Virus record (IMG/VR): IMGVR_UViG_3300049437_000244
Coordinates: 1-56,435 of that record
Reading direction: 5' to 3' (one strand)
Length of the DNA stretch: 56,435 bases
Origin: a virus
Taxonomy: Duplodnaviria; Caudoviricetes
Position numbers and translations under genes: made by a program. How positions within the stretch are numbered: the first letter of the stretch is position 1; each line of letters opens with the position of its first letter. The notes under the pieces were generated by a model. The model was not told where the DNA came from, searched no databases, and saw only the letters and a program-made list of their open reading frames with translations. Below, in pieces: positions 1 to 56,435 of the stretch.

Positions 1-1122
1 TCACTGGGCTTTCCCTCCACGTTTGTGCTTGTTTTGGCCCCGTTCGTGGGCGGCGTACCCCGCGACCGACCGGAGCGCCGTCGCCATGTCCGAGGTCGTC
101 ACGATAGCGTACCTATCGAACGTCCGGCGGGTTCTGTGCCCCGAGATCGCCATGATGGTCCGCTCGTCGACACCAGCCTCTCGAAGGGCGCGGATCGCAG
201 AGCGGCGAAGGTCGTAGACCAGTGTCGACGCGGGCAGACCGGCGACCTCGAGCGCCCGGGCCCAGGCCCCGTACCAGCCCTTCGAGAAGCCGCCGCTCCG
301 TCTCGTCGCGGGCTTCCCGCCGTTGTGGAAGATCAGCGGCGACCGCATCCGCTTCGCCTTCCGGCGGGCGATCACGGCCGCGATCTCTTCGACGAGGGGC
401 AGCACGCGGGGGTCGCCGGTCTTCGCCCCAGCAGGCTCCAGGCAGAGGACGCCGGCCTTCTCGTCGAGGGCGCTCCACCGCAGGGAGGCGATCTCGCCGG
501 GCCGCATCGCCGTCAGGGCGAAGAAGGCGACGAAGTCACGGAGGTCGTCGTCGGGAATGGAGTCGATGAGCAGGCTCATCTCCTCGCGAGAGAGGAAGCC
601 GGTACGGACCCCAGCGTCACGGTTGCCGAGGGTGCGGATGTTCGGCTCCCACGTGATCCGCCCGTCCTTCTTCGCAAGCGCGCAGGCGGCACGGAGGATC
701 TCGAGCTCCCGGTTGATCGTGGCGACCGCCCGCCCCTTCTTCCTCCGAGTCTTGATGTACCGCGAGACCGTGTCCGAGGAGAGCAGCGTGAGACGAGTCG
801 ACCCGATCTCTTCGATGACGGCCTTCGCGTGGGACGACGATGCGCGAAGCGAGCGCAGGCCCCTCGTTTCGGCGTCGTCAAGGTACGCCTCGACGACTCG
901 CTTGACGGTCATCTTCGCCGCGGCCGGCCCGGCGTACTGGCTGCGCCCCTCGCGGTGCAGACGAACGTCCGCGAGTCGCCGCGCGAGCAGCTTCCGGGCC
1001 TCCGCCTCGGTCGCGCCGCCGGGCTCGCGTACCTGTTCGTTTCTCCCTCGGACGGGCGCGTAGTAGGCGATCCAGTAGCGGCGTCCGCGAAGGTAGACGC
1101 GACCGTCGCCGTAGGGTGTCAT
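1..1122 (-). CDS. int: Tyrosine recombinase / phage integrase
   Basis: N-terminal arm-binding-like segment (GRVYLRGRRYWIAYY). Catalytic motifs AMRPGEI, AKTG, YDLRR, ISGH and FDRY. Confidence 0.95.
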   Translation of the reverse strand: MTPYGDGRVYLRGRRYWIAYYAPVRGRNEQVREPGGATEAEARKLLARRLADVRLHREGRSQYAGPAAAKMTVKRVVEAYLDDAETRGLRSLRASSSHAKAVIEEIGSTRLTLLSSDTVSRYIKTRRKKGRAVATINRELEILRAACALAKKDGRITWEPNIRTLGNRDAGVRTGFLSREEMSLLIDSIPDDDLRDFVAFFALTAMRPGEIASLRWSALDEKAGVLCLEPAGAKTGDPRVLPLVEEIAAVIARRKAKRMRSPLIFHNGGKPATRRSGGFSKGWYGAWARALEVAGLPASTLVYDLRRSAIRALREAGVDERTIMAISGHRTRRTFDRYAIVTTSDMATALRSVAGYAAHERGQNKHKRGGKAQ

Positions 1123-43064: not shown

Positions 43065-44719
43065 GCGTCCTCCCGCGAGTCCCGGACGGACTCGATGCCG
43101 TGGCCGGTCGAGGCGAGGAGGACCGACGCAAGCCGGTCCGTGAGCACCTTGGCCTCCGGCCGCTTCCGGGCCCGAGTCACGACCCGGTCGAGGGCGACGA
43201 GAGGCGAGACGCCCTCCCGAATGGCAGAGACGAAGATCTGCCGGTAGGGGGCGAGGAGGTCCTCGGCGACGCCGTCGGGAGCGCCGTCGGCTCCCAGGAC
43301 GGGCGGCTTCTCCTCCTTCTCGAGCCGGGTCCGGAAGGGGATGACGTCGGCGAGCTTCTCCCCCGCCGGCGGCACGGGCGCCGCGGTGGCCTTCCGGATC
43401 GCCTTCGACGGGTCCTTCGCGACCTTCAGGCCGCACTGGAGAATCGCGTCCTCCTCGTCCATCGAGGCGACGCCCGCGTTCGAGAGGTTGAGGACGACCT
43501 TCGAGAGCTTTTCCGGGTCCTTCCGCTCGACCGGCTCAATGACGACGACGGGCGTGAAGCGAGCGGCGACCTCCTCGCCGCGATTCCGGCGGACGTAGGG
43601 CTCGAAGAAACCCGTCCGGAGGTCCGAGGCGAGCTCGGCGCAGCGAGACGCGTAGAGCTCGCGGGACTGCGCCCCTGCTTCCTCGGTCGACGTGCGGCTG
43701 CCGGCCCCGACCTCGACGTTGGAGGCCTGGGAGTGCCCGTGGAAGACCTGGTCGTAGGTCTGGTTCGCGATCCGGAGGAGCCGCTCGTGGATCTCGCCTG
43801 CCCCCGCACTCGTCGAAAGGGCGTTGATGAGCTGCGGCACCATCCCGAGAGGAAGGGCGGCCCATCCGGACGTCCCCATCCGCTTCAGGACTCTGGCTGC
43901 GAGTTCCTTCTGGCCCTTCTTCGACGAGTCGTAGTTCAGGAACCGGAACGGGATGCCGCAGAGTTCGGCGAGCCTCGCGAGCCAGCGAAGGCCGTAGGTC
44001 GCGAGCCCCCAGACAATCAGACACTGGAAGAAGAGTCCCCGCTGATCCAGCGGGACGACCCCCTTCCCGGTCTCGAGAAGGACGATGTTCCCGGACTCGA
44101 GGAAGGGCGCCAGCGGGACGGAGTCCAGCCGGTTCGCGAAGGGCCGGTACCGCCACTCCTGCGTGACCGGGTCCAGCTCGAAGCGCCTCGCAGGGATCTG
44201 CTCGATCCGAAGGACCTGCTCCCGGTCGCCTTTCGCGCCGCGCGCCTTCGTGACGATGTGCAGCCCGATCAGGCCGTAGGGGAACTTCTCGAAGGCTGCG
44301 GCGAGCGCCCCGACCAGGTGCGGCCGGAACTGCGCCTCGACCTCCTGGACGATCTCGAGCGCGAGCTTCCCTTCGGGGGTCTTCTCTGCGTCTCCCCGGA
44401 ACTCCTCCGGCGGGTGGAACGTCACCCGGGCGGAGGTGACGGCGAGCTGGGCCTTCGAGATCTGCGGTCCCGGCCCGAACCGGAGCATCTCCTGGAAGAT
44501 CTCGAAGAGCCGCTGGGGACGGCCGGCGCGCGCCTCGCGCCGCGCCATCACGATCTCGTCCGGCGAGACGTCGCGACCGAGGGTCAGGGAGCTGCCGACC
44601 AGGTCCGGTTCGTACGGGACGTCTCCGAGATCGGAAGCCGTCTCCTTCCGCGCGAGGGCCCACTCACTCGACATCTCGAGGGCGAGCTCCGGAAGGCCGA
44701 GGGTGACGACGCCGCTCAT
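43061..44719 (-). CDS. Portal protein (Mu gp29 / DUF935-like)
   Basis: WL..AELCGIP...Y, WAALPLGM; position after TerL. Confidence 0.85.
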   Translation of the reverse strand: MSGVVTLGLPELALEMSSEWALARKETASDLGDVPYEPDLVGSSLTLGRDVSPDEIVMARREARAGRPQRLFEIFQEMLRFGPGPQISKAQLAVTSARVTFHPPEEFRGDAEKTPEGKLALEIVQEVEAQFRPHLVGALAAAFEKFPYGLIGLHIVTKARGAKGDREQVLRIEQIPARRFELDPVTQEWRYRPFANRLDSVPLAPFLESGNIVLLETGKGVVPLDQRGLFFQCLIVWGLATYGLRWLARLAELCGIPFRFLNYDSSKKGQKELAARVLKRMGTSGWAALPLGMVPQLINALSTSAGAGEIHERLLRIANQTYDQVFHGHSQASNVEVGAGSRTSTEEAGAQSRELYASRCAELASDLRTGFFEPYVRRNRGEEVAARFTPVVVIEPVERKDPEKLSKVVLNLSNAGVASMDEEDAILQCGLKVAKDPSKAIRKATAAPVPPAGEKLADVIPFRTRLEKEEKPPVLGADGAPDGVAEDLLAPYRQIFVSAIREGVSPLVALDRVVTRARKRPEAKVLTDRLASVLLASTGHGIESVRDSREDA

Positions 44720-46359
44720 CAGACCTCGCTCCACGAGGGGGAATCGATGTCGCCGAGCTCGCTCTCCCCCATGACGATCGACTCCTCGGTCAGGAGCGCC
44801 GGCTCATTCGCCACGAACGTGACCGCGACGGCGTCGCCCTTGTCCGGCGAGCGCCCGAGCCGCTGGCGGATGCGCTCCTTGTCCTCGATCAGGATTCGGC
44901 CGTTTCGGACTTCGAAGTGCGGAGCGGTCAGGTCGCCGAAGAGCTCCGGATCGTCCGGGAGTGCGATCGGCTCGGGATTCCGCTCGGGGTCCGGGTCCAG
45001 GGCATCACGGACCGTCCAGTACGCGTAGGCGCGAAGGTTGGCGAACTGGAGAAGTCCCGAGCGGTCGGTCGCATCTCTCGGGGCTCCCATCGAGAAACGA
45101 ACGGGGACGACAGGGACCTCAGCCTGCCGGAGGGAGTCGTAGGGCGAGGCACCGACGCCGTCCGCGTCGATCGCCGCGAAGCCGCCCTCGGCGAGGATCG
45201 GGAGGACCTTGGCCGCAACCTCCGGCCCTGTGCGCGTGGCGGCGCCTTCGAAAGCGAGGATCGGGTCGAACCACCATGCGAATCGAGGAGCGATCGCCGT
45301 GCGGTCCTTTCCCCCGCGCGCGACGTCGACGCCGACGCAGGTCTGCCGGATGGGAGGCCGGGAGCCGGCCTTCCAGCGCCCCATAGCGGCGCGGATCCAG
45401 GCCGTGGGGATGACCTGGTAGGCGTGGTCCTCGAGGCCCGCCTTGAAGTCGCCGAAGAGGAGCTGACTCCGGAGGGGCTCGGGGAGGCCCTGGAGGTTCC
45501 GGCGGTAGCCGGTCCGGACGAGGCTCGGGTTGTCGTCGAGGTGCGCCGGGATGAAGGTCCGGCTCCGGGGGTACACGAGCTCCCCGCCGTCGGGGATCGG
45601 CTCCGGGCCCGGGACCGCGATCTCCTGTCCCCTGATGACCGCGTACCAGCGCAGCTCGCCCGGGAGGGCGGGGTTCGGATGGCCCTCCCGGAGCCAGGGC
45701 GCCCAGTGCTCGATGACCCAGAGACCGTCGGAGTGGGAGGGGGGGTTGCCGCAGCAGATCGTCCGGCACCGCTGGCCCGGGACCGTCGTCCGGTTCCAGG
45801 CGTTGAGGAACAGGTACTGCGACCTCGAGAACTCGGGGATCTCGTCGAAGGCCTTCAGGTCGTGCGGCCGGCCCCGGTACTTCTGCTTGTCCTCTTCGTA
45901 CTGGACGCCGCCGAACTCGATCGACCGGATCGGCTCCCCGGGCCTCCGGACCTTGAAGACGTGGGTCTGGCCGTTGTAGCGGCCGAAGCGACCCGCGATG
46001 GCGTGAAGACGCTCGACCGCATCGTTCAGCTGGGAGAGCTCCCGCCGGAAGACGATCGACTTCCGGTGCTGCGTGAGGCCCGCCCCGAGGAGGAGATCGG
46101 TCTTCCCGCCCCCGGCGGCGCCGCCGTAGTACAGCTCGTCGGCAGTGGAATCGAGAGCGAGGCGCTGGGGGTTGATCCCGCCACGCTCCTTCGGGGGGTT
46201 GGGGAGCCAGACCGGGAGGAGCCGGTCCAGCTCGGCGCGTTCGGCCGCCGTCAGGTACGGGAGGAGGGTCTCGAAATCGGCCAGGGCGCCGGGGGTCGCA
46301 GGCGCGACGAGGGGGGCCGCCATCACGGCCAGCGCGAGGAAGGCGACGGCGCCAATCAC
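44719..46359 (-). CDS. terL: Terminase large subunit
   Basis: YYGGAAGGGKT, AFDEI, CGNPP, GVDVARGGKD and RSPDKGDA. Confidence 0.95.
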   Translation of the reverse strand: MIGAVAFLALAVMAAPLVAPATPGALADFETLLPYLTAAERAELDRLLPVWLPNPPKERGGINPQRLALDSTADELYYGGAAGGGKTDLLLGAGLTQHRKSIVFRRELSQLNDAVERLHAIAGRFGRYNGQTHVFKVRRPGEPIRSIEFGGVQYEEDKQKYRGRPHDLKAFDEIPEFSRSQYLFLNAWNRTTVPGQRCRTICCGNPPSHSDGLWVIEHWAPWLREGHPNPALPGELRWYAVIRGQEIAVPGPEPIPDGGELVYPRSRTFIPAHLDDNPSLVRTGYRRNLQGLPEPLRSQLLFGDFKAGLEDHAYQVIPTAWIRAAMGRWKAGSRPPIRQTCVGVDVARGGKDRTAIAPRFAWWFDPILAFEGAATRTGPEVAAKVLPILAEGGFAAIDADGVGASPYDSLRQAEVPVVPVRFSMGAPRDATDRSGLLQFANLRAYAYWTVRDALDPDPERNPEPIALPDDPELFGDLTAPHFEVRNGRILIEDKERIRQRLGRSPDKGDAVAVTFVANEPALLTEESIVMGESELGDIDSPSWSEV

Positions 46360-47520: not shown

Positions 47521-49689
47521 ATGAGGAGATGCGCAGGTCCTCAGGAGCTAGGCCAGGCGGCAGCCGAACGACGCCGCCGGGCAGCGCTCCGGACGTTGGC
47601 CCTGGTGGCCGCAGGAACAGCTTCATTGCTGGCCGTTAACTCGCCGCTTCGGGCGGCAGTCGTGGAGCGTGTGGATGTTCGCGAAGCGCTCAACCCCCAT
47701 CGAAGTCTCTACGTTACGTTCTCGGGGCTCGTGCTCGGAACGGCTGGTAGGCCGGTGGCCCAGGCCACTGTCGCGGTCGAAAAGACCACGGTTCTGACGG
47801 ACGCACGAGGCTTCTTCCGTTTGACGGTCCAGAGTCCACCGGAGGGGCGTGAACGGCGATTCGTACTGAGCATCCGCAAAGAGGGATACGGCTTGCTGTC
47901 TCGGGTCTACGACGCGGGAATCGAAAAGGGCCGTTGGATCCTCACCGAGGCCACCACGACGCGCATCGACCCCCGCCAGACGAACGTCATACGGGACACG
48001 AGACGGCTGGTCACGTGCACCGGGACATTGAGCAGTCAGGTCGACTGGTCGGCGTACGAAGAACGGAGACAGCCCCGCCGCATCGATGCGCAGGGTACGT
48101 ACGTCGGCGAAGCATCCAGTGCCGTCAAGAGCGCCATGCTCTTCGCGGAAAATGCCAGAGACTGTAACGAGGGCATTACCCTCTCCATCCCCGCCAACAC
48201 GCTGGTGGATCGCGAGGGCAGGCTCCCCGGTGGCAAGGTCTCGATCACCCTGTCGACCGTGGACATCTACTCTCCCTCGTCGATGCCTGGCGACTATGGA
48301 GTGAGCCTCCCCGACGGGAGCGGGTACATGCTCACTTACGGTGCGGGGACGATCACCGCGACCGCCCAGGGCCGCAGCTATCAGCCGCGAACGGGCGCCG
48401 CCACGACGCTGACCATCCCCGTGAACCGTGCTCAGCTCGGTCACGCGAAGCTACCCGCCGCCGTTCCGCTATTGCTCTACGATGAGGAACGGGGACTCTG
48501 GCGGCAGACCGGTCAGGCCCGATTCGACTCCAAGCAAGGTGCCTTCGTCGCCCAGGTCGAGCACTTCTCGGCATTCAACATGGATCTGGTGAAAACGGAT
48601 CAGGCCTGCGTCCGCGTAGACAGCACAGGCATCACGGATGACTATGATCTCGAGGTCACCGTTCCGTCGGACACAGGTACGGTCGTCCGCACCCACCCAA
48701 TCGACAATACGCCCGAGAAGATCCACGTCGTCTACAACTTGCCGAGTAACACCGACATCGGCCTTCGGGCCCTCCGTTCGCAGGGCATCCTGGTTGTGCC
48801 CGTCTCCGACACCGTCTCCGTCAACACCCATGCGCCACAGTCTCCCGCGACGCCCAACGCTCCTGCCTATCCGTATGACATCTGCAACGGTAAGGCCGTC
48901 ATCTCGCAGCGCCCGCTCGCCCCCGTCCTCAGCGGTCCGGCGACATCGACCGGCACATTCGTGCTCCATTGGGAGTACCACTGGGCAGGACTCGCCAGCA
49001 ACAGCGACGGGTTCATCCTCGAGGAATCGAATTCCTCTTCAAGCAGTGGCTTCTCCGTGCTCGCTTCGACCGTGAACCAGAATGACCACCGAGCCGCTGT
49101 GGACTATCAGGTCGCAAAGACGGTGAATGGAACGTACTGGTACCGAGTCCGCGCGAAGACCGCGATGGGCTACTCGCCCGACAGCAACATCGCGGAGGTT
49201 CTCGTCGACACCGGTAACCAGACGCCTATGCCGACGACGCTGAGAATCCACAATGACCTCTACGGGGCAGGCGACTGGGACATGTGGAACGGACTGATAC
49301 GTGTCCGCATTGCAACAACCTGCGAGGCGGCAATGGCCGGAGCCGGCGAGCGTCTCTTCCCTTACGAGTCGACGACCGATGTGGCGAACCTGGAGCGAAT
49401 CGCCCCGAACGAGACCCGGGATTATGACGTGAGCACGGTGCAGCTCGCCTCCGGAAATACCTACTGCCTCTTCATCCAGGCCGGTTGGTGGGACTACTTC
49501 TGTTTCGGTTCCTGCGCTTGGACCAAGCATGACACGGAGGTCATAGGCTGCCACGGACAAGTCGACACCAAGTCCGCGCCAGTCAGGATCGAAAGACCGT
49601 TCCGCGATCCCGAGTACATCAGGGTGAGCGATTTCCTACCGAACCTCTCGAGCTGGGAAGGACATCCCGGGTGCGCATATAGGCCTTGA
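47521..49689 (+). CDS. Secreted multi-domain beta-sandwich protein (carboxypeptidase-regulatory-like + FN3-like), moron
   Basis: Signal peptide, G.V....GRPVAQATV...TDARGFF, VEHFSAFNMD, YWYRVRA. Opposite strand to the neighbouring genes. Confidence 0.75.
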   Translation: MRRCAGPQELGQAAAERRRRAALRTLALVAAGTASLLAVNSPLRAAVVERVDVREALNPHRSLYVTFSGLVLGTAGRPVAQATVAVEKTTVLTDARGFFRLTVQSPPEGRERRFVLSIRKEGYGLLSRVYDAGIEKGRWILTEATTTRIDPRQTNVIRDTRRLVTCTGTLSSQVDWSAYEERRQPRRIDAQGTYVGEASSAVKSAMLFAENARDCNEGITLSIPANTLVDREGRLPGGKVSITLSTVDIYSPSSMPGDYGVSLPDGSGYMLTYGAGTITATAQGRSYQPRTGAATTLTIPVNRAQLGHAKLPAAVPLLLYDEERGLWRQTGQARFDSKQGAFVAQVEHFSAFNMDLVKTDQACVRVDSTGITDDYDLEVTVPSDTGTVVRTHPIDNTPEKIHVVYNLPSNTDIGLRALRSQGILVVPVSDTVSVNTHAPQSPATPNAPAYPYDICNGKAVISQRPLAPVLSGPATSTGTFVLHWEYHWAGLASNSDGFILEESNSSSSSGFSVLASTVNQNDHRAAVDYQVAKTVNGTYWYRVRAKTAMGYSPDSNIAEVLVDTGNQTPMPTTLRIHNDLYGAGDWDMWNGLIRVRIATTCEAAMAGAGERLFPYESTTDVANLERIAPNETRDYDVSTVQLASGNTYCLFIQAGWWDYFCFGSCAWTKHDTEVIGCHGQVDTKSAPVRIERPFRDPEYIRVSDFLPNLSSWEGHPGCAYRP

Positions 49690-50072
49690 CTTCGTCTGAC
49701 AACGGACTTGAGCGGTCCGGTCGTCCCGGTCGCTTGACTCTTTCCTCCTAGACCACCCAGAGTCCGCGCTGATCTCTTCGGGGTGAGCTCCGGCGGCCTC
49801 GAGGCCGTTCTGAGGTTCGCTGTGCTTGGGCACGCGCCGCACATATTGGCCGGTGGCCGCGCGACGGCTATAGGCCCAGGCCAACCCGGACGCACCCCTC
49901 AGCGATGAGCTGGCGGCGCTCGCTGGCCACGCCCCAGGGGTTGGCGGGCTAGACGGCGGAGTCGAGGGAATGAACCAAGCGGGCGGGGTCCTCGCTGATG
50001 CGAGCCGCCGCCATCTTAGCCCTCTCCTACAAGCGGCGCCGACCTCGCATAGGCCCTGCCCCGGATTGCCCG

Positions 50073-51341
50073 TCACTCCTCTTGCCGGACGACACGATCA
50101 TTCTTCGATCGCTCGCGCGCAAATTCGTGGGAGATTCGGGCTGAGGAAATTCCCTGAAGAACCACGTAGGCGGACATCAATGGGCTGCGGAAGCGGAACC
50201 TGAACCGGTGCTTCGCCCCTGTCTTCTGAAGCACCGACGCACGGCTCGCCTCACAGAACTCCTTAATGTGTCGCGCGAAACTAGGAATATCGAGGGTTCT
50301 GCCCGTGATCTTACGGAGAGGATCTCTCACACCTGCTGCCTGGAAGTAACCCAGGTCATCGGACTCAGCGAGTGCACACGCCAGTAGAACGTCCGGATAG
50401 AGGCTTGCCTTCTTGGGGCTGCTCACGGCACGTACGTAGTCCTTCCGAACAGACTGCTGCGCGTCCTGGATGGCCTTCTCGACAGCGCGGTCTACATGGC
50501 CGGTATTACAGACCTCTTCGCCCGCAAGGATCGCTGCTGTTGCGGAGTTTAGACCGAGGAGGTGCGTGAAATGAGGGAGACCGACCGAGAGGAAGCAGAC
50601 CTGGTCTGCCGCGTCTGGTTCAATCCTCATCCCGAGTCTTGAGAATCCCCTTTCGAGAATTTCAGATAGCTCTTGCGTTGACATTCTTGGCATCTGCACC
50701 TGTACGAGCGCTCGCTCCACTGACTGATGTTCCGCGATGAGTTCCTCGACGGTATCCGCAACGCCGACCAGCATCAGCATCGCGCTTACGCCAAGATCGG
50801 AGAGGATCTTGATGGTATCGGCGAAGAGCCGCCTATCCCTTGAGGCAGAAATCCGATCGAACTCGTCGATGATCACGAGTACCACGAGCGCTTGGGACGA
50901 GAGCGATTCAAGCGCTCGTCGCACGTCGTCCGGCGATATCACATCTGGCAACAGGTCGAGAATCGGGACCTTCGCGGGAACAGGCGGCTTCGACTCAAAG
51001 CCCACTGGAGTCGGCTGCTGCTGGAGGACGTGGATGCTCGAAAAGACCTTTCGCCAGACAGACGAAAAGGTGTCGCTCGAATCACAGACGACATGCGGTG
51101 CTATGGTGTTCGCCCGGCTGAACACCCCCCTCACGATGTTCGCGAGGGAGGTCTTTCCGACCCCTCGCTCGCCATAGACGATGACGTGCCTACCTCTCTG
51201 CATCAGGGTATCGACGACGGTCTGCAGCTTCTCGACTCGTCCCGCAAACAACGCCTGTTCGTTCACGGGAGCCGCCGGAGTGAAAACCCTTCCCGCTTCC
51301 ATTCGTTTCTTGATGATCTCGTCGTTGTCGCTCATGCGCAT
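50073..51341 (-). CDS. AAA+ / STAND-like ATPase (Cdc6/Orc1-like fold), moron
   Basis: FAGR, Walker A YGERGVGKTS, Walker B VIIDEFD, GLPH. Visibly lower GC. Confidence 0.8.
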   Translation of the reverse strand: MRMSDNDEIIKKRMEAGRVFTPAAPVNEQALFAGRVEKLQTVVDTLMQRGRHVIVYGERGVGKTSLANIVRGVFSRANTIAPHVVCDSSDTFSSVWRKVFSSIHVLQQQPTPVGFESKPPVPAKVPILDLLPDVISPDDVRRALESLSSQALVVLVIIDEFDRISASRDRRLFADTIKILSDLGVSAMLMLVGVADTVEELIAEHQSVERALVQVQMPRMSTQELSEILERGFSRLGMRIEPDAADQVCFLSVGLPHFTHLLGLNSATAAILAGEEVCNTGHVDRAVEKAIQDAQQSVRKDYVRAVSSPKKASLYPDVLLACALAESDDLGYFQAAGVRDPLRKITGRTLDIPSFARHIKEFCEASRASVLQKTGAKHRFRFRFRSPLMSAYVVLQGISSARISHEFARERSKNDRVVRQEE

Positions 51342-51430
51342 ACTATACAGTGAGTCGCGCAACTTGCGAGCTTATTAGCGCTACCGTGCACAACACTTGT
51401 GTGCGGTCCGCCTCGAAATCCGATCGATCA

Positions 51431-52150
51431 CTACCTCACCGCCACCCACCCCGCGAAGTTGAACCACCGCCAGAAGCACTCCACCCGCGAGAACCCGGCC
51501 TCGCGGAGTAGCTCCTCGTTCCACTTCGCCGTCACCGGCACGAGCACCCCCTCGAGCGAGAGCGCCTTCCGGAGGATCGCCTCTTCCGAGTAGCCGTTCG
51601 CCTTCTTCAACTCGCGGTAGAGCTTCACGAACAGCGCGTCGAGCTCGGCGTTCGGGACGAGGATCTTCTCCACAAGGATCAGCGCTCCTCCCGGGGCCGT
51701 CGCCTCGAACATCCGCCTCACGATGTGAGGCCGGTGCTCGATCGGCGTGAACTGGAGGGTCAGCACCGACAGCGTCACCGAGGCCCGGACCGGCGGGTAC
51801 TCGTTCCGGAGGTCGAGGTCCTGGACCCGCATGATCCCCGCCTCGATCCACCCGCAGAACCGCTCGCGGACGGCCTCGAGCATTGGCCTCGAGGTGTCCA
51901 CAAGAACGAACTGGTTTCGGGCCCCGAAGCGGTCCACGAATGGCGCGATGCCCTCCCCTCTCGAGCAGCCTACGTCCACGATCGAAGTCGCCTTCTGGAC
52001 GAAGCGCGCGCCCATGTCGAAGACCGCGCTCCTCATCCCGCGGTAGTCCGGGACGGAGCGCTGGAGCATGTCGTCGAAGGCGTCCGTCACCTTCCGATCG
52101 AAAGCCCACCTGCCCTCGGGCATCGTCTGGTCGATCACGTTCTCGGCCAT
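51431..52150 (-). CDS. cmoA: CmoA-like carboxy-S-adenosylmethionine synthase
   Basis: WAFD..V...FDDMLQRSVP.Y, DVGCSRG, LTLQF, PGGALILVEK, KKANGYSE and WFNF all match CmoA. Confidence 0.85.
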   Translation of the reverse strand: MAENVIDQTMPEGRWAFDRKVTDAFDDMLQRSVPDYRGMRSAVFDMGARFVQKATSIVDVGCSRGEGIAPFVDRFGARNQFVLVDTSRPMLEAVRERFCGWIEAGIMRVQDLDLRNEYPPVRASVTLSVLTLQFTPIEHRPHIVRRMFEATAPGGALILVEKILVPNAELDALFVKLYRELKKANGYSEEAILRKALSLEGVLVPVTAKWNEELLREAGFSRVECFWRWFNFAGWVAVR

Positions 52151-53250
52151 CAGCTCCTGACCTCCTTCAGAACCTCGTCTCGGATCGTCCTGGCGACGCA
52201 GGCCATCATCACGGGAGGTACCGAGCGCCCGAGGCGCTCCCATTGCTGGTCGTAGGTCCCCGTCAGCTGGAAGTCGTCGGGGAACCCGCTCATCCTCTTC
52301 AACTCGGCGATCGTGAAAGTCCGCGGCACGGCCCAGTGGTAGAGCACCGGCCGCGCCTGCAGCACGGTGTGACTCGGCTTCTCGGGCGAGAGTCGGAAGT
52401 GGGTCATGAACGCCTCGCGCCCATGCCGGCGAAGGAAGGCGCGGCCCAGCCCCATCGTGTCGCCCGGGACCGACTCCTCCCAGAGGAGCCGCGTCATCGT
52501 CCCCTTCGGCAGGATCTTCAGGAGCCTAGTCTTCGAATCTCCCGTGTCCCACCGAAGGTCAGGCGGCGCCAGCCCTTCAAGGGCCTCTCCCATCGAGTAG
52601 CGGTACGGCAGGGGCCGCGGGAAGGCGGGCGGGCGCTCGAGGTCCTCGCGGACCCCCACGAAGATCAGTCGCTGCCTCATCTGCGGTACCCCGAGCCACT
52701 GAGCGTCGAGGAGCCGCGCACCGACGCGGTACCCGCAGCTCCGGAGCTCGGCGAGGATCCGCTTGAAGTAGCCCTTCGCCGTCCCCTTCACGAGGCCCGA
52801 GACGTTCTCGGCGACGAACGCCCGCGGCTGCAAGCCGCGCAGGAGCCGGGCGTACTCGAAGAACAGGTCGTCGACGCGTTGCGACGTCTCGGAGTAGGCC
52901 TTCACCTTCCCCCAGCTCGCCTCGCGCTTCCCCGCCGTGCTGAAGGCCGCGCAGGGAGGGGAGCCGTCGAAGAGGCCGATCTCCCCTTCCCGGAGTCCCG
53001 TCGCCTCGAGGATGTCGGCCGGTCGCACCGTCCGGATGTCGCGGGTGTCGAGGATCGTCCCCGGGTGATTGAGCCGGTAGACCTCCTGAGCCGACTCGAT
53101 GAACTCGGAGGCCCAGGCAACCCGGAAGCCGGCCATCTTGTAGCCGAGCGAGGATCCCCCGCAGCCCGAGAACGTCGACACCACCGTGAGCCCGTTCCAC
53201 GGCAGTTCCGCGATCTCGCGCATGGAGCGGACGCGGTAGGGAGGCCTCAT
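52150..53250 (-). CDS. C5-cytosine DNA methyltransferase fold, predicted carboxymethyltransferase
   Basis: Motif I FSGCGG, IV GSPPCAAFS, VI AENV, VIII PQMRQR, IX ELKRMSGFP, X LGRSVPP (R in place of N). Confidence 0.9.
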   Translation of the reverse strand: MRPPYRVRSMREIAELPWNGLTVVSTFSGCGGSSLGYKMAGFRVAWASEFIESAQEVYRLNHPGTILDTRDIRTVRPADILEATGLREGEIGLFDGSPPCAAFSTAGKREASWGKVKAYSETSQRVDDLFFEYARLLRGLQPRAFVAENVSGLVKGTAKGYFKRILAELRSCGYRVGARLLDAQWLGVPQMRQRLIFVGVREDLERPPAFPRPLPYRYSMGEALEGLAPPDLRWDTGDSKTRLLKILPKGTMTRLLWEESVPGDTMGLGRAFLRRHGREAFMTHFRLSPEKPSHTVLQARPVLYHWAVPRTFTIAELKRMSGFPDDFQLTGTYDQQWERLGRSVPPVMMACVARTIRDEVLKEVRS

Positions 53251-53501
53251 CACGGCTCCCACCTCGCCTTCCCCGTCTCGATCACGGCAGCGATCGCGAA
53301 CTCGACGTCGGGGCCGTACCCGATCGCCCGGCAGAGGATCTCCTCCTCGCGATCGAAGTCCTCGAGGGGGAGCCCGCTCTCGAGCTTCACGGCGCGAATC
53401 CGCCCGACCAGATCGAACCTCCTCCGGAGCCGGACGAAGAGCTCGTCGTCGACGGCGTCGACCGCGTCGCGCAGCTCAGCGAGGCTTTCCGGACCACTCA
53501 T
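53250..53501 (-). CDS. AroQ-type (type II) chorismate mutase
   Basis: LAELRDAVDAVDDEL...RRRFDLV..I..VK...GLPLEDFDREEEIL matches CM_2. ATG at 53501; stop overlaps the methylase ATG. Confidence 0.8.
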   Translation of the reverse strand: MSGPESLAELRDAVDAVDDELFVRLRRRFDLVGRIRAVKLESGLPLEDFDREEEILCRAIGYGPDVEFAIAAVIETGKARWEP

Positions 53502-54012
53502 AGCCGCACATCGGACAGTGGTAGTCGGTCGGGATCGACTGGTCGTACTGGTGGAACTCGGTCGGGGGCGTCGGCTCGGGCTGGGCCTTCGGGTCATCCT
53601 TCGCGCGAGGGACCGGCGGCTCGAGACCGCGGAGCATGTTCCGGACCGCGGCGCTCTGGAACTCGATCCCCTCGAGGAGGGACGCGAAGGCGGTCCCGTC
53701 CCTCTCCGCCATCCCCGCGAGCGGGTCGACCGTCGCGAGGAGCTTGGCGGCTTCATCCTCGGTCACGTCGAGGACGAGGACCGGCACGAGCTGATCCGGG
53801 GTCGTCTCGGCCCGGAGGTGGCCGTCAATGAGCTCGAGGGTCCCGTCCGGGAGCTCGCGCGCCAGTAGGGCGTCGGCGTAGCCCACCTCGGCGAGGACGC
53901 CCTGGAGGGCCTCACGCTGCGCCTTCGGGTGAACGCGCCAGTTCCTCGGATTCGGCCGGAGATCCGCGGCGCGCACACGCCGCAGGTCCTTGATGCGATC
54001 TCTGACTTGCAT
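53476..54012 (-). CDS. ParB/Srx-like N-terminal domain protein with C-terminal Zn ribbon
   Basis: DLRPNPRNWRVH...LIDGHLR; HCPMCGYEW. Confidence 0.85.
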   Translation of the reverse strand: MQVRDRIKDLRRVRAADLRPNPRNWRVHPKAQREALQGVLAEVGYADALLARELPDGTLELIDGHLRAETTPDQLVPVLVLDVTEDEAAKLLATVDPLAGMAERDGTAFASLLEGIEFQSAAVRNMLRGLEPPVPRAKDDPKAQPEPTPPTEFHQYDQSIPTDYHCPMCGYEWSGKPR

Positions 54013-54013
54013 T

Positions 54014-54259
54014 TCAGGCTCCTACTCGCAGGCTTCGTTTCGGGTAGCAGGTGCCGGCGGGACCCACCTCGGTCTCCACGGTCAACGTCCTGTGGCCGCA
54101 GGTGGCGCACCCCCAGAGCCGGAAGAACCGGTCCTCGGCGGGCGTCAGGTCCTCGGCTCCGTCCAGCCACTCCGTCATCGGCGGTGCCACGACCGTCCGG
54201 GGATCCGCCCCCGCCTCGATCGCCCTCTTCTTGCAGGCCGGGCAGCGCGGCCACGCCAT
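54014..54259 (-). CDS. Zn-finger protein (NrdR-N / Ogr-like), possible late regulator
   Basis: CPAC...CATCGHRTLTVE. Confidence 0.55.
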   Translation of the reverse strand: MAWPRCPACKKRAIEAGADPRTVVAPPMTEWLDGAEDLTPAEDRFFRLWGCATCGHRTLTVETEVGPAGTCYPKRSLRVGA

Positions 54260-54849
54260 CAGCGCGGCCCCCCGGCGACGGCGAACAGCGGAAGGTCCTC
54301 CTCCAGGCCTACGACAGCCCGAGAAGGCGCAGGCGGCACCAGGCCGGAGCTCGGCCCGCCCCCGGCGAGCAGCTGGGCCGAGAACCGCTCGAGGCCGGGC
54401 GGAGCCGCGTCGACGACGACGATCGCCCCCGCGGGCTCCCCGTAGACCTTCCCTACCCACTGCTCGACGACCTGCGCGTCGTCGCGCCAGAGGATCCCCG
54501 TGAGGGCGTCCTCGAGGGCACGGAGCAGCTTCGTCGCGTCGGGCTTCGTCGCCGGGTAGGGAGGCGCCGACGGGAGGAGACCCCGCTTCCCGAGGTGCCC
54601 CTTGAGCCGCGGGAAACGGAACAGCACCCGTAGCGAGAGCGGCCCATCGAGGAGTGTCCCCCGGTAGACCTCCCGCGCAGCCGCGACGACCGCCACGCGC
54701 CAGTCCTTGACCCGCGGGTTGGCGTCGCTGACGACCGTCGCCTGGCTGCCGTTCTCCCGGAGCACCGGGGAACCGTCCTTGTGCCGTAGCGGGAAGGCGC
54801 TCTTCGAACCGCCCGGCTGAGGAACGCCGATCACTTCGAATCGAATCAC
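54259..54849 (-). CDS. rusA: RusA-family Holliday junction resolvase
   Basis: G.PQPGGSK, KPDATKLLRALEDALTGILWRDDAQVV. Confidence 0.9.
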   Translation of the reverse strand: MIRFEVIGVPQPGGSKSAFPLRHKDGSPVLRENGSQATVVSDANPRVKDWRVAVVAAAREVYRGTLLDGPLSLRVLFRFPRLKGHLGKRGLLPSAPPYPATKPDATKLLRALEDALTGILWRDDAQVVEQWVGKVYGEPAGAIVVVDAAPPGLERFSAQLLAGGGPSSGLVPPAPSRAVVGLEEDLPLFAVAGGPR

Positions 54850-56132
54850 GCCGTCACCTCCGCTTCCTCCACGAACTGGATCGGCACCTGGACTCCACAG
54901 GCACGGCACGCCGAGGCGACTACCTCGCCGTATTCCCCTGCCGCGTACCCGAGAAACAGCGGGGCCACGGAGACCCGGAGGACTCCGTTCACCTCGCCGA
55001 CCTGGCGAGTCCCCCGGAACCAGGTCTCGAAGTCGCGTTCGTCGACGAGAGGCCGGAGCTGCTCGAGGACCCGCGGCCAGACGCCGCCCCCAGGTGGTGG
55101 GGGGGCCAGGGCCTCCGTCGGCGCTGCCGCCTTCCGTCGGGGGGCCGGCGGGTGGGCCCCGACGAGGGCGGGGGCCGGCGCCGAGTCCCGGAACGGTCGG
55201 TCGTACCGGCCCTCCTCGATTCGCGTCAGCGAGTCCGGCTTGAGCAGGAAGTCCAGCGTGACCCAGGCCTGCCCTGCGAGGTGCGGAAGTGCCGCGAGGT
55301 GCCGTACGGCGGCCATCCAGCGCTCGAGGTCGGGCACCGCGCGAAGCCGGGCCCTGGCGGCGCGTTCCCGGCCCGGTGGGAGGGCCTTGGCCTCGGGCAA
55401 ACGGCCGCGGTTCGAGTTCCAGACGGCGAGGAGCTGGCGCGGGGAAGGGGGGCGCGGCGCCCCCGCGGCAGTGGGGGTTCCACTCCCCTCTCCTTCCTGC
55501 TCCTGCTCCTGCTCCTGCTCCTGATTCCTGGAACGCTTCCTCGAACCGTTCATGGAATCGCTCCCATCTCCGTTGTCGGAGCCGTTCTCGGACTCGTCCC
55601 CGGAGCCGTTCCCGGAGGGACCACCGGAACCACTCCCGGACGAGTTCTCGGGAGGGTTCTTGGAGCCCTTCCCGGAACCGAACCGGAGACGGCCCCGCTC
55701 GTCCTCCTCCATCCCCAGCTCGAACACTTCCGGGAACCCCGAGGCGTTTCGCAGGACAACCGTCGCTTCGTCGCGGAGGGCGCACTCGGGGATCTCGGCG
55801 ATCGCACGTCGCCAGGCCTTGACCGTGTTCGGGTTCTCCGCGGGGTTGTACTTGACGGCTTTGGGGATCCAGACGACGCGCGCCTGCCAGTCCGCCTTGA
55901 CCATGTCGGCCGTCGAGAGCTCCGCGAAGCACCGACGGAACGCCGGCAGGGGCCAGTCGAGCATCTCCGCCAGGGCTGCTTCGCCAGCCGAAAAGAGGCC
56001 GGGCGCAGCCGTCGTCTGGGGGCCCGTGAGGAGGAACACCCAAAGATACCGAGCGTTCGGCTTCGGGCGCGAAAGGGCGACGAACTTCTCGTCACCCCAC
56101 ATCTTCACGTCGATCTTCCGGTGCCGCGCCAT
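54846..56132 (-). CDS. Phage replication initiator (N-terminal wHTH, C-terminal DnaA_N-like domain)
   Basis: MWGDEKF..LS...LW.FLLT, (EQ)n linker, TLDFLL...RIEEGRYD, W..VL..L.....DFETWF. Confidence 0.8.
   Translation of the reverse strand: MARHRKIDVKMWGDEKFVALSRPKPNARYLWVFLLTGPQTTAAPGLFSAGEAALAEMLDWPLPAFRRCFAELSTADMVKADWQARVVWIPKAVKYNPAENPNTVKAWRRAIAEIPECALRDEATVVLRNASGFPEVFELGMEEDERGRLRFGSGKGSKNPPENSSGSGSGGPSGNGSGDESENGSDNGDGSDSMNGSRKRSRNQEQEQEQEQEGEGSGTPTAAGAPRPPSPRQLLAVWNSNRGRLPEAKALPPGRERAARARLRAVPDLERWMAAVRHLAALPHLAGQAWVTLDFLLKPDSLTRIEEGRYDRPFRDSAPAPALVGAHPPAPRRKAAAPTEALAPPPPGGGVWPRVLEQLRPLVDERDFETWFRGTRQVGEVNGVLRVSVAPLFLGYAAGEYGEVVASACRACGVQVPIQFVEEAEVTA
55531..55684. repeat. Degenerate 12-bp-period repeats inside the initiator gene (candidate iterons/ori)
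   Basis: GAACCGTTCATG, GAGCCGTTCTCG, GAGCCGTTCCCG, GAACCACTCCCG and GAGCCCTTCCCG in 12-bp register. Confidence 0.55.
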
Positions 56133-56135
56133 GGG

Positions 56136-56435
56136 TCAGCCCTCCTTCGCCTTCTGGAGGGCTGCTCGCGCGTTCAGCCGAGCGAGCCGGAGGAGGGTTC
56201 CGAGGGTTGGGGGCGGGTTCCACGGGTCCGAGCCGTTCGCCCGGACGTATGCGGCAAGCTGGAGCTCCTCGAGGAGCACCCCATGCCCGGCCGAGGCCTC
56301 TGCCGACCTGCAGGCGTGCGTCACCTGACCCCAGGCCGTCATCGGCAAGTCGGCGCCCGGGCTGGCGAGGAGGCGCTCGACCTCGTCCAGCGCTGCCCTG
56401 AGAGTTGGGAGGGAGCGCGCGCGGCCGCGGGTCAC
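56136..56435 (-). CDS. Hypothetical protein
   Basis: 99-aa ORF upstream of the initiator, at the window edge. Confidence 0.55.
   Translation of the reverse strand: MTRGRARSLPTLRAALDEVERLLASPGADLPMTAWGQVTHACRSAEASAGHGVLLEELQLAAYVRANGSDPWNPPPTLGTLLRLARLNARAALQKAKEG

Follow-up and report, generated by a model that had tools for sequence, protein, structure and literature searches.

What group does a cytosine C5-transferase place on phage DNA when an arginine stands where the enzyme family has a motif X asparagine? The question is raised by a gene at 53250..52150, on the minus strand, of the IMG/VR provirus record IMGVR_UViG_3300049437_000244, which was analyzed over its full length of 56,435 bases (here called the window). 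Judged from its sequence, from a structure model, and from analogy with a characterized homolog, the gene very likely encodes a CmoX-type DNA cytosine C5-carboxymethyltransferase of a temperate phage, which would make 5-carboxymethylcytosine (5cxmC) from carboxy-S-adenosylmethionine (carboxy-SAM, or Cx-SAM) by the route proposed below. The window enzyme is a divergent further example, showing approximately 36% identity by tblastn to SpCmoX of Synechococcus phage S-B43, of a kind of enzyme that was published in 2025.

Identity of the cytosine transferase

Motif X lies at 52201..52242 on the minus strand and translates to WERLGRSVPPVMMA, as an earlier note on this DNA had read it. The arginine codon, CGC at 52225..52227, takes the place of the Asn in G-N-(S/A)-V and encodes residue 346 of the 370-amino-acid open reading frame 53262..52150 when counted from the GTG at 53262, or residue 342 when counted from the ATG at 53250. 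The ATG is the likelier true start of cmoX, because it overlaps the upstream stop codon by one base in CCG TGATG AGG, is preceded by GGGAG, and agrees with relatives that align from residues 2 to 6 onward. With this start the gene has 366 codons and ends with a TGA at 52152..52150. The earlier note had also held all other motifs of C5-cytosine methyltransferases (C5-MTases) to be intact. That stands for motif I (FSGCGG), the PPC cysteine, ENV, and QxRxR, which are all present and vary little or not at all across 49 aligned relatives, but it does not stand for motif IV, which reads P-C-A and not P-C-Q. In this motif, GSPPCAAF at 52942..52965 on the minus strand, the catalytic Cys codon (52953..52951) is followed by an Ala codon (52950..52948) in place of the conserved Gln, which is Gln82 in M.HhaI.

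The translated gene matched PF00145 from end to end, with an E value of 1.2e-52 over profile positions 2 to 322 of 324, and the open reading frame also matched the NCBIfam dcm superfamily (E value, 4.6e-47). In a phmmer alignment, the motif X Asn of M.HaeIII ("miGNavp") stood opposite the window Arg ("rlGRsvp"). The closest PDB chain by sequence was 8yf3_A, with an E value of 4.4e-65 compared with 8.6e-23 for the next chain; this chain is SpCmoX itself (PDB 8YF3; Yang et al., Nat Commun 2025, PMC12783734). Window residue R346 aligned with the Arg of "...ERVGRMVPP..." in 8yf3_A ("rlGRsvpp" opposite "rvGRmvpp"), and GSPPCAAF aligned with the SPPC of the same chain. Translation of the S-B43 gene from GenBank placed the aligned Arg at residue 350 and the Cys at residue 98. 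An AlphaFold2 model of the window protein, made with the 49-sequence alignment, had a predicted local distance difference test (pLDDT) score of 91.1, and its top PDB fold match was again 8yf3 (E value, 2.7e-30; template modeling [TM] score of 0.85 on the target). No M.MpeI chain was among the matches listed in the sequence and fold searches. Four features that mark a CmoX are found in the window: the C5-cytosine methyltransferase fold, by PF00145 and by the model; the SPPC filter motif with the catalytic Cys, which spans S95 to C98 in SpCmoX; an Arg at the R350 position; and a cmoA gene in the same element, here adjoining cmoX with a one-base overlap. In place of the canonical M.HhaI-type pair, G-N in motif X together with P-C-Q in motif IV, the window protein has G-R and P-C-A.

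According to the main text of the S-B43 study, CmoX of that phage makes 5cxmC with carboxy-SAM supplied by a phage CmoA, and the wild-type enzyme takes Cx-SAM only, giving 5-carboxymethyldeoxycytidine (5cxmdC) (PMC12783734). The Cx-SAM product was reported at m/z 443, and the restriction enzyme HhaI was blocked by carboxymethylated DNA (PMC12783734). In the 1.9-Å structure, the place of M.HhaI Asn304 is taken by Arg350, in direct contact with the carboxymethyl group of Cx-SAM, and the R350N mutant is inactive with both S-adenosylmethionine (SAM) and Cx-SAM (PMC12783734). Several claims of the earlier note can be judged in this light. Its placement of the Arg opposite the motif X Asn is borne out by the alignments with SpCmoX Arg350, the counterpart of M.HhaI Asn304 (PMC12783734), and with the Asn of M.HaeIII. 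Its proposal that a natural Arg pairs with the cofactor carboxylate finds support in the contact of Arg350 with the carboxymethyl group in the homolog crystal structure (PMC12783734). The check it had called for, an assay of the wild type and an R-to-N mutant with SAM versus Cx-SAM, has been published on the homolog, where SpCmoX used Cx-SAM only and R350N accepted neither cofactor (PMC12783734).

The use of the Arg as a diagnostic for such enzymes, which that note had suggested, had already been published. A search of IMG/VR, UniProt, and MGnify that was filtered for SPPC and R350 yielded 5,615 candidates, with 4,257 CmoA, 2,251 ligase, and 1,660 ParBc genes on the same contigs (PMC12783734), and the window provirus is probably among these candidates. 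The earlier interpretation is right and is not new, since the exchange of Asn for Arg as a signature, the part it plays in the structure, and its use as a filter all appeared in print in December 2025 (PMC12783734).

Arginine, cmoA, and motif IV in related loci

Whether the GR of motif X co-segregates with a neighboring cmoA was a further check named in the earlier note, and the association holds in two sets of loci. The first set comprised 131 loci found with the window protein as the query, 49 of them from species-representative genomes, 80 from IMG/VR, and 2 from phage records. In 127 of them motif X could be read, and it was Arg-type in 119 (once as A-R) and Asn-type in 8. Of the 119 Arg-type loci, 117 have a CmoA match with an E value below 1e-5 in the flanks, and the sequence downstream of the remaining two extends over only 308 and 88 nucleotides (nt). 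By the same threshold, CmoA was found at none of the 8 Asn-type loci, whose downstream flanks were 1.2 to 6 kb. The second set was obtained by querying IMG/VR with three Asn-type cluster representatives, which gave 130 unique homologs. CmoA was in the flank of 108 of the 118 Arg-type loci in this set, compared with 0 of 11 Asn-type loci, and a whole-record search found it in 0 of 10 Asn-type records, 3 of which are at least 90% complete. Four of the 10 Arg-type loci without CmoA in the flank had a match to the CmoA model TIGR00740 in another part of the record, and the only two records at least 90% complete are both among these four; the remaining six are fragments that are 5 to 46% complete. 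TIGR00740 also matched in 8 of 14 control genomes at an E value of 0.001, and the weaker whole-record matches, at 52 and 68 bits, may be generic methyltransferases.

Isolated phages were covered by 12 sampled from 152 matching records. All three Arg-type phages, Mcat8, PaBG, and Erwinia Y3, carry cmoA, which is adjacent to the transferase gene in Mcat8 and PaBG and lies approximately 18 kb off in Y3; cmoA was in the flank of 0 of 4 Asn-type phages. The Arg-type transferase gene of Erwinia, Dickeya, and Yersinia jumbo phages is 2,130 nt long (L142, Erwinia phage vB_EamM_Y3, 2642-4771). The encoded protein has a long N-terminal extension and matches the window enzyme from the Cys onward only.

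Raw Fisher tests of association gave p values of 7e-23, 3e-11, and 1e-10, which exaggerate the evidence, since states are shared among related sequences. A first tree was built without L009, L028, and L123, which have a stop inside the match, without L048, which has a short match, and without four unreadable loci and exact duplicates. The 8 Asn-type loci formed one clade in this tree, all of them Acidobacteriota, with a Shimodaira-Hasegawa-like approximate likelihood ratio test (SH-aLRT) value of 99, and under midpoint rooting the clade nests among Arg-type genes. It may represent a reversion to methyl transfer. These transferases, from Acidobacteriota metagenome-assembled genomes (MAGs; L017, L018, L019, L034, L036, L037, L038, and L049), are approximately 50% identical to the window CmoX and have no cmoA beside them. 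A combined tree of 229 loci, in which the Arg-type fragments L010, L043, L152, L193, L209, L226, L289, and L297 were set aside for the CmoA trait, needs about 4 changes between Arg and Asn in its best topology.

A second pocket residue changes along with the Arg. In the first set, the catalytic Cys is followed by A, S, C, or V in 115 of 116 Arg-type loci and by Q in 7 of 7 Asn-type loci, motif IV of L049 being unreadable, so that 7 of the 8 Acidobacteriota Asn loci were scored. When the window protein was searched against 1.84 billion cluster representatives, 1,164 relatives were found at an E value of 1e-30. Among the best 150 of these, 73 were Arg-type, with Gln after the Cys in 1, and 58 were Asn-type, with Gln in 46, while the rest had other pairs. 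The motif X Arg is thus kept across related loci, in 119 of the 127 readable loci of the first set and in 73 of the 150 cluster representatives, and is therefore neither chance nor a sequencing error. A FastTree phylogeny of the cluster representatives had at least 8 changes between Arg and Asn, and only 2 supported independent pairs.

In M.HhaI, Gln82, Tyr254, and Asn304 flank the transferred group; the Q82A mutation lowers methylation approximately 16-fold, and N304A opens the pocket to larger groups (PMC3526304). An Ala or Ser in motif IV would give room and an Arg in motif X would give a counter-charge, and both changes would presumably be required for a switch of cofactor. Tentatively, we propose a two-residue switch, in which Gln with Asn goes with methyl transfer from SAM and Ala or Ser with Arg goes with carboxymethyl transfer from carboxy-SAM, and which may have been thrown several times together with the gain or loss of cmoA, although we regard this general scheme as possible rather than likely. 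The change of the motif IV residue along with the Arg bears on the dead R350N mutant of SpCmoX, and a two-residue switch would explain why that single mutant is inactive (PMC12783734). If true, it predicts that a double change would interconvert methyl and carboxymethyl activities. The strings "Gln" and "PCQ" are absent from the main text of PMC12783734, where the weblogo of Fig. 8e or the supplements may show motif IV. Nor does that main text contain the natural control described here, the approximately 50% identical Asn/Gln relatives without cmoA.

A third pocket state was seen in four phages, which have G-M-S-V-P-P at motif X together with SPPC-S, and hence no Gln: Flavobacterium phage FPSV-S2 (L143), Bacillus phage BMBtp14 (L144), Bacteroides LoVEphage (L145), and Cellulophaga phage phi18:3 (L146). 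Methylophilales phage Melnitz (L150) has G-L-M-V-A-P at motif X and SPPC-P. No cmoA was found in the flanks of these phages (L143 to L146 and L150). Since both methyl-pocket residues are replaced, the transferred group may not be methyl, and if the two-residue switch is real, these Met and Leu enzymes would point to yet another transferred group.

The proposed pathway and its alternatives

The modification cluster of the window lies on the minus strand in the gene order ParB-like, chorismate mutase, cmoX, and cmoA, and TGATG one-base overlaps are found at both inner junctions, between the chorismate mutase gene and cmoX and between cmoX and cmoA. In the proposed pathway, a small AroQ-type chorismate mutase of 83 amino acids (53250..53501; its stop, TGA at 53252..53250, has one base in common with the cmoX ATG) would convert host chorismate to prephenate and so supply CmoA. 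The cmoA-type gene (51431..52150; its ATG, at 52150..52148, has one base in common with the cmoX stop) encodes a predicted carboxy-SAM synthase of 239 amino acids, which by homology would make carboxy-SAM from SAM and prephenate, as was shown for the S-B43 enzyme (PMC12783734). CmoX would then flip the target cytosine, its Cys (C100 from the ATG) would attack C6, and C5 would take the carboxymethyl group of carboxy-SAM. Within the pocket, R342 would pair with the cofactor carboxylate, as the crystal structure shows for the homolog, and the motif IV Ala in place of Gln would make room for the larger group. The phage DNA would in this way receive 5cxmC, a base shown to block a restriction enzyme in the published system (PMC12783734).

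The window CmoA matched TIGR00740 with an E value of 4e-46 over positions 11 to 238 of 239, and it matched the solved CmoA chains 1im8 (1.5e-34) and 4gek (7.3e-33). The 83-amino-acid open reading frame matched PF01817 (CM_2) with an E value of 1.1e-8 and 35.7 bits, above the cut-off of 27. It aligned with the E. coli chorismate mutase 1ecm over residues 5 to 63, with R11, R28, K39, D48, R51, and E52 conserved, and these six residues were invariant in 17 relatives. The fold model of the mutase had a pLDDT of 93.5 and three helices, and its top 17 PDB fold matches were all chorismate mutases, with TM scores of 0.76 to 0.87 and E values of only 6e-3 or weaker.

Other loci also combine relatives of this mutase with cmoX and cmoA, and at least four gene orders occur among them. 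In 21 Verrucomicrobiota-type loci the mutase gene separates the ParB-like gene from cmoX, in L130 it directly precedes cmoX, and in L103 it directly follows cmoA, and further mutase-bearing loci were found in the second set. All seven viral contigs retrieved with an alignment of the mutase have the order ParB-like, chorismate mutase, cmoX, and cmoA, and all seven belong to one clade. Relatives in uncultured viral contigs were found by hidden Markov model and pattern searches; a tblastn search of 50,697 phage records with the mutase gave no match at an E value of 0.01, a search of low sensitivity with an 83-amino-acid query. In the literature we found no link between a phage chorismate mutase and CmoA or Cx-SAM, and the word "chorismate" is absent from the main text of PMC12783734.

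The same four-gene module is present in several copies in some MAGs. A single Verrucomicrobiota MAG carries it on separate contigs (L004, L009, L012, L021, L025, and L029), and another MAG carries the copies L027, L045, L046, and L047. Four to six copies per MAG suggest many related prophages or a multicopy mobile element. In one copy (L046, 4678-7080, plus strand), the CmoX frame is an 801-amino-acid open frame that is split exactly at the catalytic Cys, with the junctions "...GSPP|C FRAGTLV ... LIVHN|C ASF...". Pfam searches gave Hint_2 at an E value of 7e-8 and Intein_splicing at 1e-4, the latter under its cut-off, and by its sequence the insert reads as an intein with the catalytic cysteine as its +1 residue. 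L047 has the same C-terminal junction (around 6040), and its upstream frame is broken.

Several points weigh against the reading of the window gene as a carboxymethyltransferase supplied by its neighbors. Carboxymethyl transfer by the window CmoX is a predicted activity, drawn from sequence and a model. The combined tree has only 2 supported independent pairs of Arg and Asn lineages, both concordant with CmoA (sign test p of 0.5), and tree-corrected tests are consequently underpowered. The chorismate mutase scores below all NCBIfam cut-offs (35 versus 71.2 bits), and its helix 3 was left unaligned with solved enzymes by phmmer and has no conserved polar column among the 17 relatives. The active-site residues of this helix in the E. 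coli chorismate mutase are Ser84 and Gln88. A mutase was moreover dispensable in vitro, where CmoA cascades gave Cx-SAM from chorismate equally well without one, by spontaneous rearrangement (PMC7496830). The window CmoA falls below the TIGR00740 equivalog cut-off, with 157.6 versus 193.3 bits, and it has an Ala ("RKA" versus "QKR" in E. coli and H. influenzae; region 51541-51600) in the column of Arg199, the residue with which E. coli CmoA forms a salt bridge to the cofactor carboxylate (PMC3663124). This column is Glu in the experimentally active SpCmoA and in most of 98 aligned phage CmoA proteins, one subgroup of which keeps Arg. The Glu of the active SpCmoA weakens the objection from Ala, and Arg199 is not defining for phage CmoA proteins, which must hold the carboxylate of the product by some other means. 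Finally, the record is judged to be 74% complete, and a ligase gene could sit in the missing part.

This incompleteness bears on the fate of the modified base. 5cxmC might be an intermediate only, converted further by an unrecognized phage or host enzyme or by a ligase encoded in the missing quarter of the genome, as CmoY does in S-B43. In the first set, 30 of the 119 Arg-type loci carry a CmoY-type ligase, 24 an amidotransferase-type ligase, and 23 a chorismate mutase, and the ligases, found in 54 loci in all, adjoin cmoX or cmoA. However, neither SpCmoY nor the amidotransferase-type ligase of Streptomyces phage TurkishDelight, used as tblastn queries, gave a match in the window at an E value of 0.01. 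The other 65 of the 119 loci also have no ligase, 28 of them with at least 3 kb on both sides, and ligase and mutase occur together in 0 of the 119, that is, in none of the 23 mutase-bearing loci, most of which come from one clade. Further conversion is therefore unlikely in our estimate, and 5cxmC is probably the final base in this phage because no CmoY-type ligase gene is found in the record.

A second alternative concerns the cofactor. The Arg could serve some other anionic SAM derivative, in which case the CmoA-like enzyme would make no carboxy-SAM and the base would not be 5cxmC; the score of the window CmoA under the equivalog cut-off and its missing Arg199 equivalent speak for this. We consider it very improbable, given that the validated SpCmoA is also without an Arg199 equivalent, that the alignment with solved CmoA chains is full length at an E value of 1e-34, and that the chorismate mutase of the operon fits a prephenate-dependent CmoA reaction. 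Least credible of all is an ordinary SAM-dependent 5-methylcytosine methyltransferase with the Arg as a tolerated variant and cmoA present for another use, such as tRNA modification, since this would accord with the full set of C5-MTase catalytic motifs, with the PADLOC and NCBIfam models that call a type II or dcm-type methylase, and with the engineered M.MedI-N377K, which still methylates with SAM (PMC12015181), but not with a nearest characterized homolog that takes only Cx-SAM (PMC12783734), with the presence of cmoA beside Arg (117/119 and 108/118) and never beside Asn (0/8 and 0/11), with the joining of cmoX and cmoA by TGATG, with the absence of the motif IV Gln on which efficient methyl transfer depends, or with a record in which no cmoB for a tRNA role turned up, no search aimed at cmoB having been made.

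The putative carboxymethylation cluster lies in a provirus with a G+C content of 67.8% that encodes an integrase (1..1122), a terminase (46359..44719), a DnaD- or O-like replication gene (56132..54846), and a Cas4-type exonuclease, together with tail, head, and protease genes. The first gene of the cluster is the ParB-like gene (53476..54012, minus strand; 178 amino acids), the end of which is overlapped by the chorismate mutase gene by 26 nt. Its product matched PHROG 620 and 723, "ParB-like partition protein," with E values of 1e-8 and 4e-7, and had no Pfam match at an E value of 0.01. Most loci of the first set likewise have a ParB-like open reading frame upstream of cmoX. A promoter and terminator scan of 49500-56435 gave 0 promoter-like sites and 4 terminator-like sites versus 3.0 expected, and was uninformative for the limits of the operon.

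Between the terminase genes and cmoA, at 47521-51362, lies an island of lower G+C content that looks like a moron or defense cargo and has no counterpart at related cmoX loci. It holds a plus-strand open reading frame of 722 amino acids with a signal-like N terminus and 62.5% G+C, and a minus-strand STAND/AAA nucleoside triphosphatase (NTPase) gene (50073..51362) with 57.6% G+C and an nSTAND1 match at an E value of 1.7e-11. The STAND NTPase was considered as a member of the modification module and was rejected, with 0 matches in the 131 related loci, a G+C content of 57.6% versus 67.8% for the window, and weak PADLOC matches.

Comparison with known systems

The window protein shares its fold, the catalytic Cys, ENV, and QxRxR with canonical enzymes of PF00145 such as M.HhaI and M.HaeIII, and it differs from canonical C5-MTases in having G-R and not G-N in motif X and P-C-A and not P-C-Q in motif IV. 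The predicted supply of its cofactor resembles the CmoA/CmoB pathway of Gram-negative bacteria for uridine 5-oxyacetic acid (cmo5U) in tRNA, in which CmoA likewise makes carboxy-SAM from SAM and prephenate. CmoB recognizes the carboxymethyl group through Lys91, Tyr200, and Arg315 (PMC7496830). Unlike the window enzyme, however, CmoB is not a C5-MTase, and its acceptor is 5-hydroxyuridine (ho5U) in tRNA.

The closest known system is that of S-B43. The window enzyme has in common with SpCmoX the fold, the SPPC Cys motif, the motif X Arg, and a cmoA in the cluster, and in both enzymes the Cys is followed by a residue other than Gln (SPPC-S in SpCmoX and SPPC-A in the window). The target-recognition part, window residues 209 to 288, did not align with SpCmoX, and the GC specificity of SpCmoX therefore cannot be carried over. 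The genetic setting is also different. S-B43 is a lytic cyanophage, whereas the window is a temperate provirus with 68% G+C, and the window is without the CmoY ligase and has a chorismate mutase and a ParB-like gene in the operon. A CmoX system in a temperate, high-GC, ligase-free phage with its own chorismate mutase bears on the supply of prephenate, the availability of which was flagged in PMC12783734 as needing investigation.

The N374K variant of M.MpeI was reportedly first described by Wang and Kohli. Arg350 of SpCmoX mirrors this substitution, as noted in the discussion of PMC12783734, and the window enzyme resembles both M.MpeI N374K and M.MedI N377K in placing a basic residue where motif X normally has Asn, with a proposed salt bridge to the cofactor carboxylate (PMC12015181; PMC12783734). 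Unlike the window enzyme, these are laboratory mutants of CpG enzymes that carry Lys and keep their activity with SAM. The M.HhaI variants Q82A/N304A, with or without Y254S, which were made for extended SAM analogs (Lukinavicius et al., NAR 2012, PMC3526304), are altered at the same two pocket positions as the window enzyme. In the engineered M.HhaI, Ala at both sites provides room only, whereas the natural Arg of the window enzyme would combine room with a counter-charge.

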